37,239 nt of DNA from an uncultured Ectothiorhodospiraceae bacterium (GCA_964342155.1 CAYFEQ010000001.1:64761-101999); one strand, 5' to 3'. Positions 15,970 through 33,819 are shown, counted from the first letter of the stretch. Notes: generated by a model from the sequence alone, not told the origin. Translations and numbers: made by a program.

Positions 15970-16300
15970 GGGAGTCAGCAATGCAGTTGCTGCAACTTGC
16001 AGAGGAAAGTCCGGGCTCCATAGGCAAGAACGCCAGGTAACTCCTGGGAAACGTGAGTTTACGGAAAGTGCTACAGAAAATAACCGCCAGAAATCTGGTA
16101 AGGGTGAAAAGGTGAGGTAAGAGCTTACCACGTATTTGGTAACAAATACGGCTAAAGCAAACCCCGTTCGGAGCAAGGCAAATTTATAGCGTAATGTCAG
16201 CCTAAGACTTGCTATATGGTATGCTGCTTGAGGTTTTTGGTGACAGAAACCCTAGATTAATAACTGCACTCGACAGAACCCGGCTTATTTGTTGACTCTC
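15970..16300 (+). ncRNA. rnpB: RNase P RNA, bacterial type A
   Basis: Conserved GAGGAAAGTCCGGGCTCC and GACAGAACCCGGCTTAT segments; terminal P1 helix GGGAGTCAGCAA/TTGTTGACTCTC; usual position upstream of mraZ. Confidence 0.96.
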
Positions 16301-16415
16301 AGCCCATTTTCTTATAATTAAATTAATATAAACTTGTAAGTTATTGTTTATAAAAGATTTAATAAAACCATTTAAAAAATCACCATATAAACACATAAAT
16401 TGATCAGTGTGATGC

Positions 16416-16444: not shown

Positions 16445-16488
16445 GTTGATAAATGGTGTTTTTTGTTAAATTGTGGAGAATAATGGTA
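16443..16488 (+). promoter_or_regulatory. MraZ autoregulatory binding repeats (10-bp period)
   Basis: GTGTTG (16443), ATGGTG (16453), TTGTTA (16463), GTGGAG (16473) and ATGGTA (16483) at exact 10-nt spacing, resembling known GTGG[A/T]G MraZ boxes. Confidence 0.65.
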
Positions 16489-16491
16489 GAT

Positions 16492-16944
16492 ATGTTTAGA
16501 GGCATACATAATATAAATCTTGACGCTAAAGGTAGGCTAGCTATCCCTACTAAGTATAGAAGCGCCATAAATGATCAATCATCTGGGAATATGATAATTA
16601 CAGTTGATCCAGGTGAAAAATGCCTTCTGCTTTACCCGCTATCTTCTTGGAATGATATTGAGAAACAAATCAATGACTTACCTGCTTTTCAAAAAAACTC
16701 CCGTAGAGTACAAAGATTATTAGTTGGTCATGCAGAAGATATACAGATGGATAAAGCTGGAAGAATTTTAATATCTCAGCCCTTAAGAGCTATCGCAGAA
16801 TTAAGTAAAAAAGTCACGATGATTGGCCAAGGAAAAAAATTTGAAATTTGGGGAAATAATCACTGGGAAAACAAGATATCAAAATGGAGGACTGAAGAAA
16901 CAGATGAGTCTGAAGAATCGGTTTTAGGAGGAATTAGAATCTGA
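16492..16944 (+). CDS. mraZ: Transcriptional regulator MraZ
   Basis: MFRG...NLDAKGRLAIP and MDKAGRILI repeats, GQGKKFEIW; likely start is the ATG at 16492. Confidence 0.95.
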   Translation: MFRGIHNINLDAKGRLAIPTKYRSAINDQSSGNMIITVDPGEKCLLLYPLSSWNDIEKQINDLPAFQKNSRRVQRLLVGHAEDIQMDKAGRILISQPLRAIAELSKKVTMIGQGKKFEIWGNNHWENKISKWRTEETDESEESVLGGIRI

Positions 16945-17141
16945 TGGATATAACAAGGTGTTTTAGAACATTGGGTATAAGTGGTCATGAAGATATGAGT
17001 GCCATCAAAAAGGCTTTCCTTAAAGTTGCTTTGAAATATCACCCTGATAAAACAAAAAATGATGTTAATTTGCTTCAAAGATTTATAGAAGCTCGGAATG
17101 CATATGACAGCATCATCAAATTTAAAAAGGCTATTAAATGA
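16944..17141 (+). CDS. Stand-alone J-domain (DnaJ-domain-only) protein, 65 aa
   Basis: LGI...IKKAF.K.ALKYHPDK...F..A.NAY J-domain signature with intact HPD; AGGAGG at 16926-16931; TGATG overlap with mraZ and ATGA overlap with rsmH. Confidence 0.88.
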   Translation: MDITRCFRTLGISGHEDMSAIKKAFLKVALKYHPDKTKNDVNLLQRFIEARNAYDSIIKFKKAIK

Positions 17142-18085
17142 GTAACTTAGCAAAACATGTGCCAGTCATGCAAAATGAATCACTTAATGCATTAAATATA
17201 CAAAAAGCTGGGATTTATGTTGATGCTACTTTTGGTTTTGGAGGTCATTCTCAAGCCATATTAAGTAAATTAGATGAAGAAGGCAGGCTATATGCGATAG
17301 ATAAAGATACTTCAGCAATTGAATTAGCAGATAAAAGAATTATAAAAGATGAAAGATTTACCCTGAAACAAGGATGTTTCTCCTCTCTTGAATCCTTTTC
17401 AAAAGAATGGGGAATTCAAGGGTCAGTAAATGGCATATTATTTGATCTTGGTGTTTCATCTGAACATTTAGAAAATCCAAAAAGAGGATTTAGTTTTCTA
17501 AGAGAAGGCCCAATTGATATGAGGTTTGATCAAAGTTCAGGTAATTCTGCAGGTGATTGGCTGGCTTCAGTTAGCGAAAACACGTTAGCTAAGATAATTA
17601 AAGAATATGGAGATGAACGTTACGCAAAAAGAATCGCCAAAGGGATTGTTACTGAAAGGGTTAAAGAAAGGATTAATACTACTAAAGATTTAGTAAATAT
17701 AATCAATAAAGCCATACCAAAAAATGAAACCAAAAAACATAATGCAACGCGAACATTTCAAGCAATCAGAATACATATCAATCAAGAATTAGAAACACTT
17801 AAGAAATCATTAGAAAAAACTTATAACATATTAGCTCCAAAAGGAAGGTTGGTATTGATAACATATCATTCCTTAGAAGAACGAATAATAAAGGATTTTA
17901 TAACTCTTACAGATAAAAGTTTATCTGCACCAAAAGACTTACCTTTAACTGAACAATTTCTAACAAAGATGTTTAAAATCATCAACAAACCGCTTAAACC
18001 TACAGACGAAGAAATAGAAATTAATAAAAAATCTAGATCAGCAAAACTAAACGTTTTAGAGAAATATAATGAAAATAATTCTTAA
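17138..18085 (+). CDS. rsmH: 16S rRNA m4C1402 methyltransferase
   Basis: HVPVM, YVDATFGFGGHS, LFDLGVSS, RGFSF..EGPIDMR, ATRTFQAIRI.IN.EL and YHSLEERI motifs. Confidence 0.95.
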   Translation: MSNLAKHVPVMQNESLNALNIQKAGIYVDATFGFGGHSQAILSKLDEEGRLYAIDKDTSAIELADKRIIKDERFTLKQGCFSSLESFSKEWGIQGSVNGILFDLGVSSEHLENPKRGFSFLREGPIDMRFDQSSGNSAGDWLASVSENTLAKIIKEYGDERYAKRIAKGIVTERVKERINTTKDLVNIINKAIPKNETKKHNATRTFQAIRIHINQELETLKKSLEKTYNILAPKGRLVLITYHSLEERIIKDFITLTDKSLSAPKDLPLTEQFLTKMFKIINKPLKPTDEEIEINKKSRSAKLNVLEKYNENNS

Positions 18086-18338
18086 TATTTCAATTTTTTT
18101 TGTGATAGCTTTTTCATCTTTTTTAGTTATATATACTAAACATCAAAATAGAATTATGAATATTCAAATAGAAAGTGTTGAAAAAGAATTATCAATAAAA
18201 GTTAATCAATATAAGGAACTATTAAATATCAAAACAAATTTATTAGAGAAAGAATTAATGAGAGAGGGGTTTAAGAAGAGTTTAGGGATGGATATACCCT
18301 CAAAAGATAGAATTATTTATTTAGATTTAGCTGAGTAG
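18069..18338 (+). CDS. ftsL: Cell division protein FtsL
   Basis: Small bitopic protein right after rsmH: N-terminal TM helix, H..R, coiled coil and LGM..P tail. Confidence 0.75.
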   Translation: MKIILNISIFFVIAFSSFLVIYTKHQNRIMNIQIESVEKELSIKVNQYKELLNIKTNLLEKELMREGFKKSLGMDIPSKDRIIYLDLAE

Positions 18339-18354
18339 GCTGGAGGTTAGTAAT

Positions 18355-19497
18355 ATGTTTGAGTTAATTGAAAATTATAGTCAGAATGCCGTGATTAAAG
18401 TCATTGGTGTTGGCGGTGGCGGCGGAAATGCTGTTCAATCGATGTTAGAGTCAAAGATACACGGTGCTGAATTCATAGTAGCGAATACCGATGCTCAAGC
18501 TTTGAATGACATAAAAGGTGCCACAACAGTCCAATTGGGTTCTGAAATTACAAAAGGACTTGGAGCAGGTGCTGATCCAGAAATAGGTAAGCAGGCTGCA
18601 GATGAAGATAGGGATAAGATTCAAGATGCAATACAAGGAGCTGATATGTTATTTATTGCTGCTGGTATGGGAGGTGGCACTGGGACAGGTGCAGCACCTG
18701 TAATAGCCCAATGTGCACATGATATGGGCATCCTAACGGTTGCAGTTGTAACAAAACCATTTGATTGGGAAGGAGTTGAAAGGAAGAAACATGCCGATGA
18801 TGGTATAGCTAAATTAGAAGATTGGGTTGATTCTCTAATTATTCTTCCAAACTCTAAACTTGAAGAAGTCTTTGGTGGGAATGCACCAATATTTGATGCA
18901 TTTGTCCATGCAAATGATGCTCTTCGAGGTGCAGTTAAAGGTATCGCTGAGATAATAACCATTAGAGGTTTAATTAATGTTGATTTTGCAGATGTTAAAA
19001 CTGTAATGTCAGGTAAAGGTAAAGCTATGATGGGATCTGGTGTTGCAAGAGGTGAAGGACGCTCGGAAGAAGCAGTAAGTCTGGCTCTTAGCAGTCCTTT
19101 ATTAGAGAATATCGATCTACATGGTGCTAGTGGTGTTTTAGTTAACATTACTGCAGGAGAAGACCTATCTGTCAGTGAATATAATAGCATTGGAAATACA
19201 ATAAAACAGATTGCTGCAGATGATGCAACAATCATTACGGGTTGTATTAAAGAAGAAGATGCAAGTGGTGAACTTAGAGTTACTATCATCGCAACAGGTT
19301 TTGATGAAAGTAAAGAATCTGAAGAATCTACAACATTGACGGATGAAAAACAATTAGAAAATCAGGTGTCACCATTAAGACCAGTTCAAGAAACTATGTT
19401 TGAAGAAAAATCACCTCAACTTTCAACTGATAATTCTGAAAGTAAAGATGGAGATGATTTAGACATCCCTGCTTTTTTAAGGCAACAAGCTGATTAG
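18355..19497 (+). CDS. ftsZ: Cell division protein FtsZ (unusual position)
   Basis: IKVIGVGGGGGNAV, GAGADPEIG, GMGGGTGTGAAP, INVDFADV and C-terminal DIPAFLRQQAD; GGAGGT RBS at 18342-18347. Confidence 0.98.
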   Translation: MFELIENYSQNAVIKVIGVGGGGGNAVQSMLESKIHGAEFIVANTDAQALNDIKGATTVQLGSEITKGLGAGADPEIGKQAADEDRDKIQDAIQGADMLFIAAGMGGGTGTGAAPVIAQCAHDMGILTVAVVTKPFDWEGVERKKHADDGIAKLEDWVDSLIILPNSKLEEVFGGNAPIFDAFVHANDALRGAVKGIAEIITIRGLINVDFADVKTVMSGKGKAMMGSGVARGEGRSEEAVSLALSSPLLENIDLHGASGVLVNITAGEDLSVSEYNSIGNTIKQIAADDATIITGCIKEEDASGELRVTIIATGFDESKESEESTTLTDEKQLENQVSPLRPVQETMFEEKSPQLSTDNSESKDGDDLDIPAFLRQQAD

Positions 19498-19500
19498 AAA

Positions 19501-21240
19501 ATTATAAACAACAGCAGACAAAGCGCATGGCGGCAATATTTCATTTACCTTATTGCCGCCACTTTTTTTATATTTATTTTAATAAGAGTAGTATTACTTC
19601 AAGTTTTTGATACTGACTGTTTTTTATTAAATAAAAATAAATGTAAAAACAACTTAAGTTCAGTTGCAGATAAACGCCAAATTGTTAATAGAGTTATTGA
19701 TACTAGTAGAGGAACAATATTTGATAGAAACAATGAAATCCTCGCAATGAGTCTTCCAAGAAAAACATTATGTATTAATCCAAATATGTTAAGTAAACTC
19801 TCCAAAGAAGAAATAATAAAATATAAACCACTATTAAAAATACTTGCAACTGATGAAACTAGATTTTGGAAATTGATAAACAAATATAAAAAAAGAAAAG
19901 AGTTTTATCTTAGAAGAAAGATCAATGACAAATTAGTTTATAAAATTAATCAATTAAACCTACCTTTTGTATATTTTATTAAAGAATATCATCGTGTATA
20001 TCTTGGAGGTAAAGCCTTTTCAAATGTAATTGGCTTTACTGATATAGATGATGTTGGTCAAGAAGGGATTGAATTGTCTAAAAATGAATCACTTACATCA
20101 ACAAAAGGGTTAAAGAAAATAAAAAAAGATAATTTAGGTAGATCCATCCAAACTATTGAAATAATTAAACAACCAATTTCTGGAAAAGATATTTATTTAT
20201 CATTAGACAAAAATATTCAAATAATTGGTTATAACGTCTTAAAGAAATATGTTGAAAAATATTCAGCTGATAGTGCATCTTTAGTACTTGTTAAAAATAA
20301 AACTGGAGAAATTATTTCTATGGTAAATTACCCAGCATTTAATCCAGACATTCGACATGAGATGAAAGGAGTTAAAATAAAAAACAGAGTAGCTACTGAA
20401 GTATTTGAACCAGGATCTACAATGAAACCTTTCATTATCCTTGCAGCCTTAAATGCTAATTCTGTCAATCAGCAGGACTTAATAGATACGACACCAGGTA
20501 TAATCAAAATTGGTGAAAAAAAAATTAAGGATCCACGTAATTATGGGAAATTAACACTCTCACAAATTATTGAAAAATCGAGTAATGTTGGAGCTGTTTT
20601 AGTATCTAGGAGTTTAGATAAAAAAGATTTATGGAATACATTAACATCATTACAATTTGGACAGAACTTGTATACTGGTTTTTCCGGAGAACAATTTGGT
20701 GAACTAAATCATCATTCACAGTGGAAGTCAGTTAATCAGGAAACGATAGCTTATGGTTACGGAATTTCTACAACATTACTACATTTATCTAGCGCATATT
20801 CTATTCTTGCAAATCATGGAAAATCTATACAACTAACTTATTTAAGAGTTGAAAGCGATGATGAAATTTTTGAGGAAGATATTATTGATGCAACTTTATC
20901 AAAAGATATATTGAAAATGATGATTCAAGTAGTTAAAAAAGGAACAGGAACTAAGGCATCTTTAGATAAATATACGGTTGCTGGTAAGACGGGGACCGTT
21001 CAAATCTTAAAGAAAAAAGGATATACATCAGAGGAACATAATACATTATTTGTGGGAGTAGTCCCCGCTACTAATCCACAGTATGTTGCTGCTATAATAG
21101 TTAGAAAGCCTAATCCAGGTAAAGATAAGGTATCAGGTGGAAAAAATGCTGCTCCGATTTTCAAAGAATTTATGAGTCAATCACTAAACCTTTTAAGGGT
21201 ATATCCAGATAAAAAAATAGTGGAAAATGAAAAAGAATAA
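19501..21240 (+). CDS. ftsI: Septal peptidoglycan transpeptidase FtsI (PBP3); start codon non-canonical or unresolved
   Basis: The frame is open from 19498 and reads KIINNSRQSAWRQYFIYLIAATFFIFILIRVVLLQV...SRGTIFDRN, giving the WR motif, TM helix and RG.I.DR. Catalytic motifs are EPGSTMK, SSN and KTGT. The first ATG (19747) would remove the membrane anchor. Confidence 0.9.
   Translation: MINNSRQSAWRQYFIYLIAATFFIFILIRVVLLQVFDTDCFLLNKNKCKNNLSSVADKRQIVNRVIDTSRGTIFDRNNEILAMSLPRKTLCINPNMLSKLSKEEIIKYKPLLKILATDETRFWKLINKYKKRKEFYLRRKINDKLVYKINQLNLPFVYFIKEYHRVYLGGKAFSNVIGFTDIDDVGQEGIELSKNESLTSTKGLKKIKKDNLGRSIQTIEIIKQPISGKDIYLSLDKNIQIIGYNVLKKYVEKYSADSASLVLVKNKTGEIISMVNYPAFNPDIRHEMKGVKIKNRVATEVFEPGSTMKPFIILAALNANSVNQQDLIDTTPGIIKIGEKKIKDPRNYGKLTLSQIIEKSSNVGAVLVSRSLDKKDLWNTLTSLQFGQNLYTGFSGEQFGELNHHSQWKSVNQETIAYGYGISTTLLHLSSAYSILANHGKSIQLTYLRVESDDEIFEEDIIDATLSKDILKMMIQVVKKGTGTKASLDKYTVAGKTGTVQILKKKGYTSEEHNTLFVGVVPATNPQYVAAIIVRKPNPGKDKVSGGKNAAPIFKEFMSQSLNLLRVYPDKKIVENEKE
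19528..19569 (+). terminator. Intrinsic terminator-like hairpin downstream of ftsZ, inside the ftsI coding sequence
   Basis: TGGCGGCAATA (19528-19538) and TATTGCCGCCA (19551-19561) form a perfect 11-bp GC-rich stem, followed by C and T7. Confidence 0.8.
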
Positions 21241-32460: not shown

Positions 32461-33714
32461 ATGATGAATAATCTCGATAAGAGTGAAGCCATTGTAGCTT
32501 TGGATGTTGGAACAACAAAAATCCTTTGTCTTGTTGCTGACTATAACGATGAGGGTAATCTCAGAATTGTAGGAATTGGCGATGAACCCTGTGATGGGCT
32601 AGAAAGAGGTGTTATCTCAGAGATACAGTCTACGGTATCAAGTATAAAAAGATCTGTTAATAAAGCCAGAAGTATCTCTTCTCACAAGATTGAATCCGTA
32701 ACAACTGGTATAGCTGGAAGTCATATACAATGCTTTAATGGTAATGCAGAAATAAATATTACAAATGATGAAGTTACCGAAGAAGATAAAATAAAGGTTG
32801 TAGAAAATGCTAGAGATATACAAATCCCCAATGATCAAGAAGTACTTCATGTTATTCCTCAGTATTATTCGATTGATGGGCAGATTGGAATAAGAGAGCC
32901 AATAGCAATGGCAGGTGCAAGACTGGGGGTCAATGTACATATAATAACTTCTTCTACTACAGCAAAAAAAAATCTAACTAAATGTATAGAGAACAGTTTG
33001 TTGGATGTTGATCATTTTGTTCTAGAACCAGTAGCCTCAAGCTATTCTGTGTTATCTGAAGAAGAACGTTCCTTGGGTGTTTGTTTAGTTGATATTGGAG
33101 GTGGAACAACTGACGTTGCAATTTTCACAGATGGAACTATTAAACATACATCTGTTATACAGATTGCCGGTCAAATGATAACTAACGATATTAAAATTGG
33201 TTTGCGCACATCAACTGAAGCAGCGGAAGAAATAAAAATACAACATGGATCTCTCATGAATAATCCTGATGACAGTGAAAAAATGATAACAGTACCTTCT
33301 GTTTCGGATAAACCAGATAATGAAGTTAGCCTAACTAATTTAAGTCATATTATAGGATGCAGGATTGATGAAATTTTTGAAAAAATACAGATTGAAATCG
33401 AAAACAGTGGTCATTCAAGCAAAATAAGATCAGGAATTGTTTTTACTGGTGGTGGAGCAAGACTATCTGGTCTTGATGATTATGCTGAAGCAAAATTTTC
33501 ATGCCCAGCTAGGATAGGTGCCCCCGCTAATATTCCAGGAATTGGTAATGTGAGTGGGAAAGCTAGGTATTCAACTGCCGTTGGACTCCTACTCTACAGA
33601 GAAGAAAAATTGAAAGATATGCCTCACAGGAGTACTTTGGAAGATAATCCTATATTAGCCTTCATTAATAGTTTTTGGACTAAATTATCTGCATATTTTC
33701 ATAAAGAACTTTAA
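32461..33714 (+). CDS. ftsA: Cell division protein FtsA
   Basis: LDVGTTK, VDIGGGTTD, AEEIK..HG, VFTGGG, YSTAVGL and an amphipathic C-terminal helix. Confidence 0.96.
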   Translation: MMNNLDKSEAIVALDVGTTKILCLVADYNDEGNLRIVGIGDEPCDGLERGVISEIQSTVSSIKRSVNKARSISSHKIESVTTGIAGSHIQCFNGNAEINITNDEVTEEDKIKVVENARDIQIPNDQEVLHVIPQYYSIDGQIGIREPIAMAGARLGVNVHIITSSTTAKKNLTKCIENSLLDVDHFVLEPVASSYSVLSEEERSLGVCLVDIGGGTTDVAIFTDGTIKHTSVIQIAGQMITNDIKIGLRTSTEAAEEIKIQHGSLMNNPDDSEKMITVPSVSDKPDNEVSLTNLSHIIGCRIDEIFEKIQIEIENSGHSSKIRSGIVFTGGGARLSGLDDYAEAKFSCPARIGAPANIPGIGNVSGKARYSTAVGLLLYREEKLKDMPHRSTLEDNPILAFINSFWTKLSAYFHKEL

Positions 33715-33819
33715 TGTATGAATTTTGTCATAATATAGGGGCATATTACTTATAAATTGGGGGTTTTTCCTTAACAAATATAGCGAAAAACCATATACTT
33801 TATTAACTGCTATAAAACT

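Follow-up and report, generated by a model that had tools for sequence, protein, structure and literature searches.

Structure of the ftsZ-ftsI junction

The subject of this study is a predicted RNA hairpin at the junction of the division genes ftsZ and ftsI in a 37,239-nucleotide (nt) stretch of DNA, hereafter called the window, from an uncultured Ectothiorhodospiraceae bacterium (GCA_964342155.1, CAYFEQ010000001.1:64761-101999). Pfam annotation of the window shows a cluster of division and cell-wall genes (dcw) on the + strand, which extends from mraZ to lpxC with small gaps between the genes. The ftsZ gene (18355-19497, +), recognized by the Tubulin and FtsZ_C domains of its translation and by gene order, lies between ftsL and ftsI. 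It has a Shine-Dalgarno sequence, GGAGG (18342-18346), 8 nt before its ATG, and ends with TAG (19495-19497). The open reading frame (ORF) listed for ftsI (PBP3; Pfam Transpeptidase and PBP_dimer) occupies positions 19498-21240 on the same strand.

The first 30 nt past the ftsZ stop (19498-19527, +) form an A-rich spacer. It is read in the same frame as ftsZ and doubles as the coding sequence of FtsI's short cytoplasmic tail (KIINNSRQSA). The hairpin begins immediately thereafter: its 5' arm TGGCGGCAATA (19528-19538, +; codons W-R-Q-Y), a loop of 12 nt (19539-19550) and its 3' arm TATTGCCGCCA (19551-19561; codons I-A-A-T) are followed by C19562 and a run of seven T (19563-19569; codons T-F-F), which on the RNA is a U-tract. 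The stem consists of 11 perfect base pairs, six of them G-C, with a dG of -17.3. When the RNA of positions 19498-19600 was folded, the energy was -20.4 kcal/mol as compared with -10.6 ± 2.6 for shuffled sequences (z -3.77), and none of 200 shuffles was as stable. Thus the window has a stable G+C-rich stem-loop with a U-rich tract (C plus T7) on its 3' side, as intrinsic terminators do.

In the FtsI frame the bases of the hairpin and the T-run translate as W-R-Q-Y-F-I-Y-L-I-A-A-T-F-F, which is the start of the membrane helix; the hairpin corresponds to ftsI codons 11-22. The codons of the transmembrane helix extend from an Arg (CGG) at 19531 to an Arg (AGA) at 19585, 18 residues apart (19531-19587, +), and the FtsI proteins of outgroup genomes have a comparable helix flanked by basic residues (W/R-R ... 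R). The stem is built from rare GC-rich codons: among 904 long ORFs of this genome, which has a G+C content of 31%, no Arg codon is rarer than CGG, with a share of 1.6%, and GCC accounts for 8.5% of the Ala codons. A preliminary description of this DNA, made from the sequence alone, had reported a perfect 11-bp stem with T7 about 30 nt past the ftsZ stop, within the transmembrane codons of FtsI, and had pointed out CGG and GCC as conspicuous; the present data confirm both observations, the former at 19528-19569.

The hairpin was compared with others in a census of the whole 1.1-Mb genome (both strands). Of 72 hairpins followed by a T-run, 14 had a dG of -10 or lower, and the hairpin at the ftsZ-ftsI junction was the most stable of all. 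For ten of these 14 elements an ORF stop is present no more than 150 nt before the hairpin, the actual distances being 13-66 nt, a range that includes the 30 nt found here, and in shape the hairpin resembles the genome's own gene-end terminators. It is the only one of the top 14 that is located inside indispensable coding sequence: in the two other elements that are formally in frame, the next gene has a start at or past the hairpin. The T7 alone is weak evidence, as there are 2551 runs of at least seven T in the genome (both strands summed); Phe is encoded by TTT in 82% of cases, and Phe-Phe is normally TTTTTT. Each arm occurs in single copy, at the ftsZ-ftsI locus only, which sets the hairpin apart from repeat families of the repetitive extragenic palindromic (REP) type. 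Without the requirement for a T-run the census gave 89 perfect-stem hairpins with a dG of -12 or lower, the strongest being mostly intergenic and typically 0-40 nt after a stop.

Several strong gene-end hairpins lack a T-run on either strand, for example those at contig positions C1:55960 (+), C8:43679 (-) and C8:45406 (-), with dG values of -18 to -20 and 12-25 nt after a stop. In this genome 3' ends may commonly be formed by hairpins without a U-tract.

Conservation and covariation of the hairpin

The GTDB order to which the window belongs has a single family, represented by 37 species genomes of about 1 Mb each. The N-terminus of FtsI could be obtained from 34 of them, and the ftsZ-ftsI junction is visible in 33 (the contig of G045 begins just upstream of it). 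Because the length of the helix is fixed, the 34 sequences align without gaps (alignment A1), and a hairpin is found at the same axis in every one. It starts 21-30 nt after the ftsZ stop in all 33 junctions. In 31 of these the stem is perfect, with a dG between -12.3 and -21.2, whereas the other two, G033 and G039, have stems of 15 bp that are interrupted by a single A-C mismatch. The loop columns that are unpaired in the window's genus (12 nt) pair further in genus g5, where they leave a loop of 4 nt.

Between groups the sequence of the stem is wholly different (TGGCGGCAATA, TGGAGACAATA, GAGACGATCAT, AGGCTGCTGTTA, AGGCTGCCATTA, TGGAGACTATTATTA). In A1, 82.2% of the 544 cells (genome by pair) are paired, compared with 68.0 ± 1.2% after shuffling (reached by 0/500 shuffles) and 35-55% when the partners are slid. 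Changes on both sides of a pair account for 87 cells versus 35.9 ± 4.6 in the shuffled alignments (again 0/500), and such double-sided changes affect 12 of the 16 pairs. RNAalifold, run unguided, paired columns 36-44 with 57-65, with compensatory changes in 7 of 9 pairs. The search for compensatory stem substitutions in relatives, which had been proposed in the preliminary description, was thus strongly positive. In the 11 core pairs (374 cells) there are 319 Watson-Crick combinations, 23 G-U, 7 A-C and 25 others; because G-U cells outnumber A-C cells 23 to 7, the excess favours a structure that acts as sense-strand RNA. Synonymous-site identity outside g5 was only modestly higher in the arms than downstream (0.745 vs 0.565), and within g5 it was not higher (0.624 vs 0.604); the support is weak, and no conclusion is based on it.

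In two genomes ftsI appears to be broken: in G033 it is in two frames, split near residue 205, and in G031 it has 11 internal stops. With contamination values of 6% (G033) and 4% (G031), the broken genes may be assembly artefacts.

The genes flanking ftsZ differ between this order and its relatives. In all 33 junctions of the order ftsZ is directly upstream of ftsI, whereas outgroup genomes, drawn evenly from the same class (the unpublished G075 was left out of the counts), have the order ftsA-ftsZ in 28 of 28 loci, with lpxC behind ftsZ in 26 of these; ftsI or ftsL stands beside ftsZ in none of the 28. As the junctions of the order are all ftsZ-ftsI and the outgroups keep the ancestral arrangement, relocation of ftsZ is a shared derived trait of the window's order.

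A 75-nt window of FtsI transmembrane-coding sequence was folded in both sets of genomes. In the family the mean z was -4.9, and all 34 values were below -3.1. In 26 outgroup genomes of ancestral gene order (26 of the 28 loci; in two no helix was found by the rule applied, and G075 was again left out) the mean z was -0.34, the minimum -1.78, and none was below -2. Behind ftsZ itself, the best hairpins in 29 outgroup loci were 3-114 nt past the stop, with dG values from -2.3 to -24.1 and no common position. By these comparisons the structure does not appear to be a by-product of the FtsI peptide, nor do they give any hint that it was brought in together with ftsZ; it occurs where ftsI directly follows ftsZ.

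These results also bear on the idea that the repeat serves at the level of DNA, as a protein-binding site or as a relic of the relocation, or that it arose by chance from the peptide. An inverted repeat at a rearrangement junction is what the DNA version would lead one to expect; in either form, however, the idea is hard to reconcile with a sequence that changes completely between genera while pairing is kept, with the surplus of G-U over A-C pairs, with outgroup helices of similar peptide sequence that show no excess structure, and with a stem made of rare codons. We regard it as highly improbable. Since the hairpin is kept in 34 of 34 genomes with compensatory changes and an excess of G-U pairs, and since the outgroup codons lack excess structure, we take it to be a selected sense-strand RNA element tied to the ftsZ-ftsI junction.

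The U-tract in the family

To the 15 nt after each stem a T-weighted tail score was assigned, and hydrophobic coding 6-mers of the window's genome served as the null. The family mean was 3.24, with scores of at least 3.0 in 18 of the 34 genomes and of at least 3.5 in 10; for the null the mean was 2.95 ± 0.9, and the same thresholds were reached by 41.9% and 24.7%, respectively. Very strong tails (at least 5.3) were found in five of the 34 genomes (G001, G003, G007, G032 and G018) as compared with 1.3% of the null. The window itself scores 4.1 because a C precedes the T7. In three of the four genomes of the window's genus T7-T8 lies directly 3' of the stem. The full terminator form thus seems to be a property of the window's genus and of part of genus g5, and the feature under selection is the hairpin, not demonstrably termination. 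Of the terminator proposed in the preliminary description, the complete anatomy stands for the window's genome; a T-tract conserved in the family beyond what hydrophobic codons provide is not supported by the scores.

A hairpin that is constant in 34 of 34 genomes next to a T-tract that varies would also be expected if it acted solely as a stabilizer. No termination would then take place; RNase E would cut the operon mRNA downstream, the hairpin would block 3' exonucleases such as PNPase, and the ftsZ segment would outlive the ftsI-mur segment. Both RNase E/G and PNPase are encoded in the genome, which is 98% complete; an RNB-family exonuclease was not found there. Other gene-end hairpins also lack a T-run, such as that at C1:55960 (tail score 2.0), which lies 23 nt past a stop. 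What speaks against this explanation is the position of the U-tract in the window's genus, where T7-T8 in three of four genomes follows directly after the stem as in the genome's terminators. We consider it possible, although unlikely.

Translation starts and reading frame of ftsI

In the window the ftsI frame contains no ATG, GTG or TTG before 19747, which is past the membrane helix, and no Shine-Dalgarno sequence. As 19747 is the first canonical start, ftsI is likely to be annotated about 83 codons short, with the membrane helix cut off. Near-cognate starts in the spacer are limited to ATT (19501-19503) and ATA (19504-19506). An in-frame ATG or TTG before the helix was found in 5 of the 34 genomes, and in three of these (G004, G042 and G016) an ATG is at the foot of the stem. 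The other 29 have near-cognate codons alone (CTG, ATT, ATA or ATC), which adjoin or overlap the ftsZ stop: ATT or ATC together with ATA in the window's genus, CTG and/or ATT over the last ftsZ codons elsewhere. Every scorable genome with ftsI in the +1 frame has CTG or ATT. An NTG that overlaps the Trp codon in the -1 frame (A-TGG) was considered as a signal and rejected, since three of the four possible preceding bases create NTG by chance.

The start codons and their distances could point to another role, in which the hairpin would act on ribosomes and limit or position initiation at ftsI, or re-initiation by ribosomes that finish ftsZ. The stop-to-stem distance is constant (21-30 nt), the rare canonical starts include the three ATG codons at the stem foot, and the near-cognate codons of the remaining genomes lie at the ftsZ stop. 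Moreover, all 21 genomes outside g5 use AGG, a rare codon with a share of 14% among Arg codons, for the Arg of the FtsZ C-terminal sequence FLRQQAD (19480-19482 in the window), and all 12 genomes of g5 use AGA; AGG yields TAAGG 7 nt before the candidate CTG start, which may be a Shine-Dalgarno-like site inside ftsZ. On the other hand, an initiating 30S subunit reaches about 15 nt downstream. The ATT and ATA codons of the window are 24-27 nt before the stem, beyond that reach, so the stem would not block them, and elongating ribosomes unwind such stems. A role of this kind is therefore unlikely, in our judgement somewhat more so than mRNA stabilization.

The frame of ftsI relative to ftsZ is not the same throughout the order. 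The two genes are in frame in all four genomes of the window's genus, whereas ftsI is in the +1 frame in 28 of the 29 other scored junctions, which belong to five other genera (the exception, G033, was mis-scored). These frames and the general lack of canonical ftsI starts could be read as signs of recoding, with the hairpin stimulating readthrough of the stop in the window's genus, or +1 frameshifting in the others, to give an FtsZ-FtsI fusion protein. One family would then need two different mechanisms. Recoding stimulators are typically 5-9 nt after the slippery site or leaky stop, far less than the 21-30 nt seen in all 33 junctions. GAC/GAT-TAA offers no slippery site, ftsZ ends in TAG, TAA or TGA depending on the genome, and TAG is an ordinary stop in the window's genome, where it ends 161 of 998 long ORFs. 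Recoding is the least credible of the explanations considered. The use of TAG as an ordinary stop and the +1 frame in the other five genera also make it unlikely that, as had been suggested, the ftsI frame is entered by readthrough.

In the preliminary description the terminator was further envisaged as being relieved by translation: a ribosome on ftsI would melt the 5' arm, so that translation of the ftsI frame would set the transcription of ftsI. The 5' arm is coding, and a ribosome on ftsI codons 5-12 would indeed cover it. However, a ribosome leaving ftsZ halts 30 nt short of the stem in the window (21-30 nt in the 33 junctions); with neither a Shine-Dalgarno sequence nor a canonical start, initiation at ftsI would be weak, and a closely trailing ftsI ribosome is unlikely. 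Re-initiation and elongation through about ten codons would have to take place while the polymerase was still at the U-tract, and the junction has no feature that resembles a sensing leader peptide. Such a switch appears very doubtful.

Proposed function of the hairpin

We favour, with about an even chance of being correct for this genome, a leaky intrinsic terminator or 3'-end-forming hairpin that holds the level of ftsZ mRNA above that of ftsI-mur mRNA. The preference for leaky termination is based on the U-tract, which is directly 3' of the hairpin in this genome and in most of the genus. Of the transcripts initiated upstream, most would stop behind ftsZ and a smaller share would continue into ftsI, the mur genes, ftsW, ftsQ and ftsA. 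Even in genomes with a weak U-tract, ftsZ mRNA would have its 3' end marked and protected by the hairpin. Since ftsI also lacks a Shine-Dalgarno sequence and, in most cases, a canonical start, the combined effect would be to make FtsI far scarcer than FtsZ. Termination or 3'-end formation, its leakiness and the effect on protein ratios are what we infer from this arrangement.

The setting is that expected of an intra-operon attenuator: the genes are co-oriented and belong to one operon, essential genes lie downstream, and the 5' end of ftsI is upstream of the stem. For the last reason transcripts from promoters upstream of the hairpin must cross it to make ftsI, as had been stated in the preliminary description. 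The same direction of unequal expression is seen in the start signals, with GGAGG and ATG at ftsZ and neither at ftsI. In a consensus scan of the window 97 promoter-like matches were obtained, below the shuffled expectation of 114 ± 13, and no internal promoter is claimed.

Several points weigh against leaky termination or 3'-end formation. The loop of 12 nt exceeds the 3-8 nt permitted by the consensus terminator scan of the window, which consequently did not list the hairpin. The family-wide T-tract is about what membrane-helix codons would give, and tails are poor in genera g3, g4 and part of g6 (e.g. AACATTCT). The genomes compared are kin and not independent, so that the compensatory changes represent only about nine types of stem. 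An efficient terminator in front of 14 division, wall-synthesis and lpxC genes would be harmful, hence the proposed terminator is assumed to be leaky. The genome encodes Rho in addition to RNase E/G and PNPase, and 3' ends could arise by these other routes. Finally, no transcript 3' end was seen in the available RNA data, which are assembled contigs and unable to show ends. These metatranscriptomes (17 runs, of which four, X1, X5, X7 and X9 from three studies, were compared) cannot show transcript levels either. Near-identical RNA contigs cover parts of ftsZ (18337-19512) and none covers ftsL, rsmH or ftsI, uncovered stretches being no evidence. Two contigs end at 19512 (X1) and 19483 (X7), which coincide neither with each other nor with the U-tract; contig ends, too, are no evidence.

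A more elaborate version would couple the two proteins stoichiometrically. FtsI would be made only from the few transcripts that extend beyond the hairpin. Its translation would depend on ribosomes fresh from completing FtsZ, which would start again next to the ftsZ stop at a near-cognate codon (ATT or ATA here, CTG or ATT in the other genera); the stem would serve as a fence, keeping such ribosomes within the A-rich spacer of 21-30 nt after termination. We put this forward tentatively and think it improbable to the same degree as an action of the hairpin on ribosomes alone. If true, the amount of FtsI made would stand in a small, fixed ratio to that of FtsZ, and this ratio would be written wholly into overlapping coding sequence.

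Termination, stabilization and an effect on ribosomes, the readings that we consider live, would all result in abundant FtsZ and scarce FtsI. What distinguishes them is the stage at which the hairpin intervenes, and they can coexist.

Other features of the cluster

Upstream of ftsZ the cluster comprises mraZ (16453-16944), a 65-residue DnaJ-domain ORF (16944-17141), rsmH (17138-18085) and ftsL (18069-18338); ftsI is followed by murE, murF, mraY, murD, ftsW, murG, murC, murB, ddl and ftsQ, in that order, and then by ftsA (32461-33714) and lpxC (from 33820), all on the + strand and all assigned by Pfam. As a result of the relocation ftsZ is the fifth gene of the cluster, and its place between ftsA and lpxC is vacated, so that ftsA now adjoins lpxC with a gap of 105 nt (33715-33819). 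The ORF between mraZ and rsmH, which overlaps both gene ends, encodes a bare DnaJ (J) domain, which is unusual in a dcw cluster. In the gap between a methyltransferase gene and mraZ there is a class A RNase P RNA (15971-16303, +; 297 bits), the sole match in an Rfam search of the whole window; nothing was matched in ftsI.

Comparison with known systems

A cell requires much more FtsZ than FtsI, the septal transpeptidase. In the classical dcw cluster ftsZ is distal, and its expression is raised by extra promoters in front of it. The streamlined marine order studied here moved ftsZ to a promoter-proximal place and thereby met the opposite problem, that of lowering the downstream genes, which it apparently solved by a structure in essential membrane-helix codons.

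Leaky intrinsic terminators serve as intra-operon attenuators, for example between rplL and rpoB. Like these, the hairpin described here is a G+C-rich stem-loop with a U-tract, and it separates what would be a strongly expressed gene from operon members whose expression would be weak. It differs from them in lying within the essential membrane-helix codons of the next gene instead of a spacer and in its 12-nt loop; moreover, the U-tract does not appear to be conserved in most sister genera, and termination is in this case predicted. The intercistronic hairpins of malE-malF (REP) and puf act as stabilizers of mRNA. They, too, are stable and located 3' of the more abundant cistron, their U-tract is dispensable, and unequal mRNA levels within one operon would result. 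The family fits this pattern, with a stable hairpin behind what would be the more abundant cistron in 34 of 34 genomes and a variable T-tract. Unlike the malE-malF and puf hairpins, the present one is in single copy and overlaps coding sequence.

In Escherichia coli ORF-internal RNA 3' ends are common, and ftsI hosts FtsO, a small RNA that acts as a base-pairing sponge (PMC7815308). FtsO is located in the middle of ftsI, near codon 380, and a mutant was made by repairing a Y380D allele (PMC7815308). The likeness is that in both cases a segment of ftsI specifies RNA as well as protein. In position and homology, however, the present element is different from FtsO and STnc475: it is a simple hairpin at codons 11-22, in an ftsI without an Rfam match. 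For the dcw cluster of Burkholderia cenocepacia, TransTermHP is reported to have found no terminator inside the cluster, in which ftsZ is near the distal end and is followed by BCAL3456 and lpxC (PMC7761207). That cluster has the same gene set and an mraZ-proximal promoter; the window differs from it in having ftsZ as the fifth gene and a terminator-shaped hairpin behind it.

Literature searches gave no title on the gene order ftsL-ftsZ-ftsI or on the hairpin. Compared with the systems above, what appears to be new is an intra-operon attenuator or 3'-end hairpin, predicted as to its function, that is dual-coded with an essential membrane helix and is conserved with covariation across an order. 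It provides a natural example of dual coding, in which a protein helix and an RNA helix are specified by the same bases, backed by covariation throughout the family.

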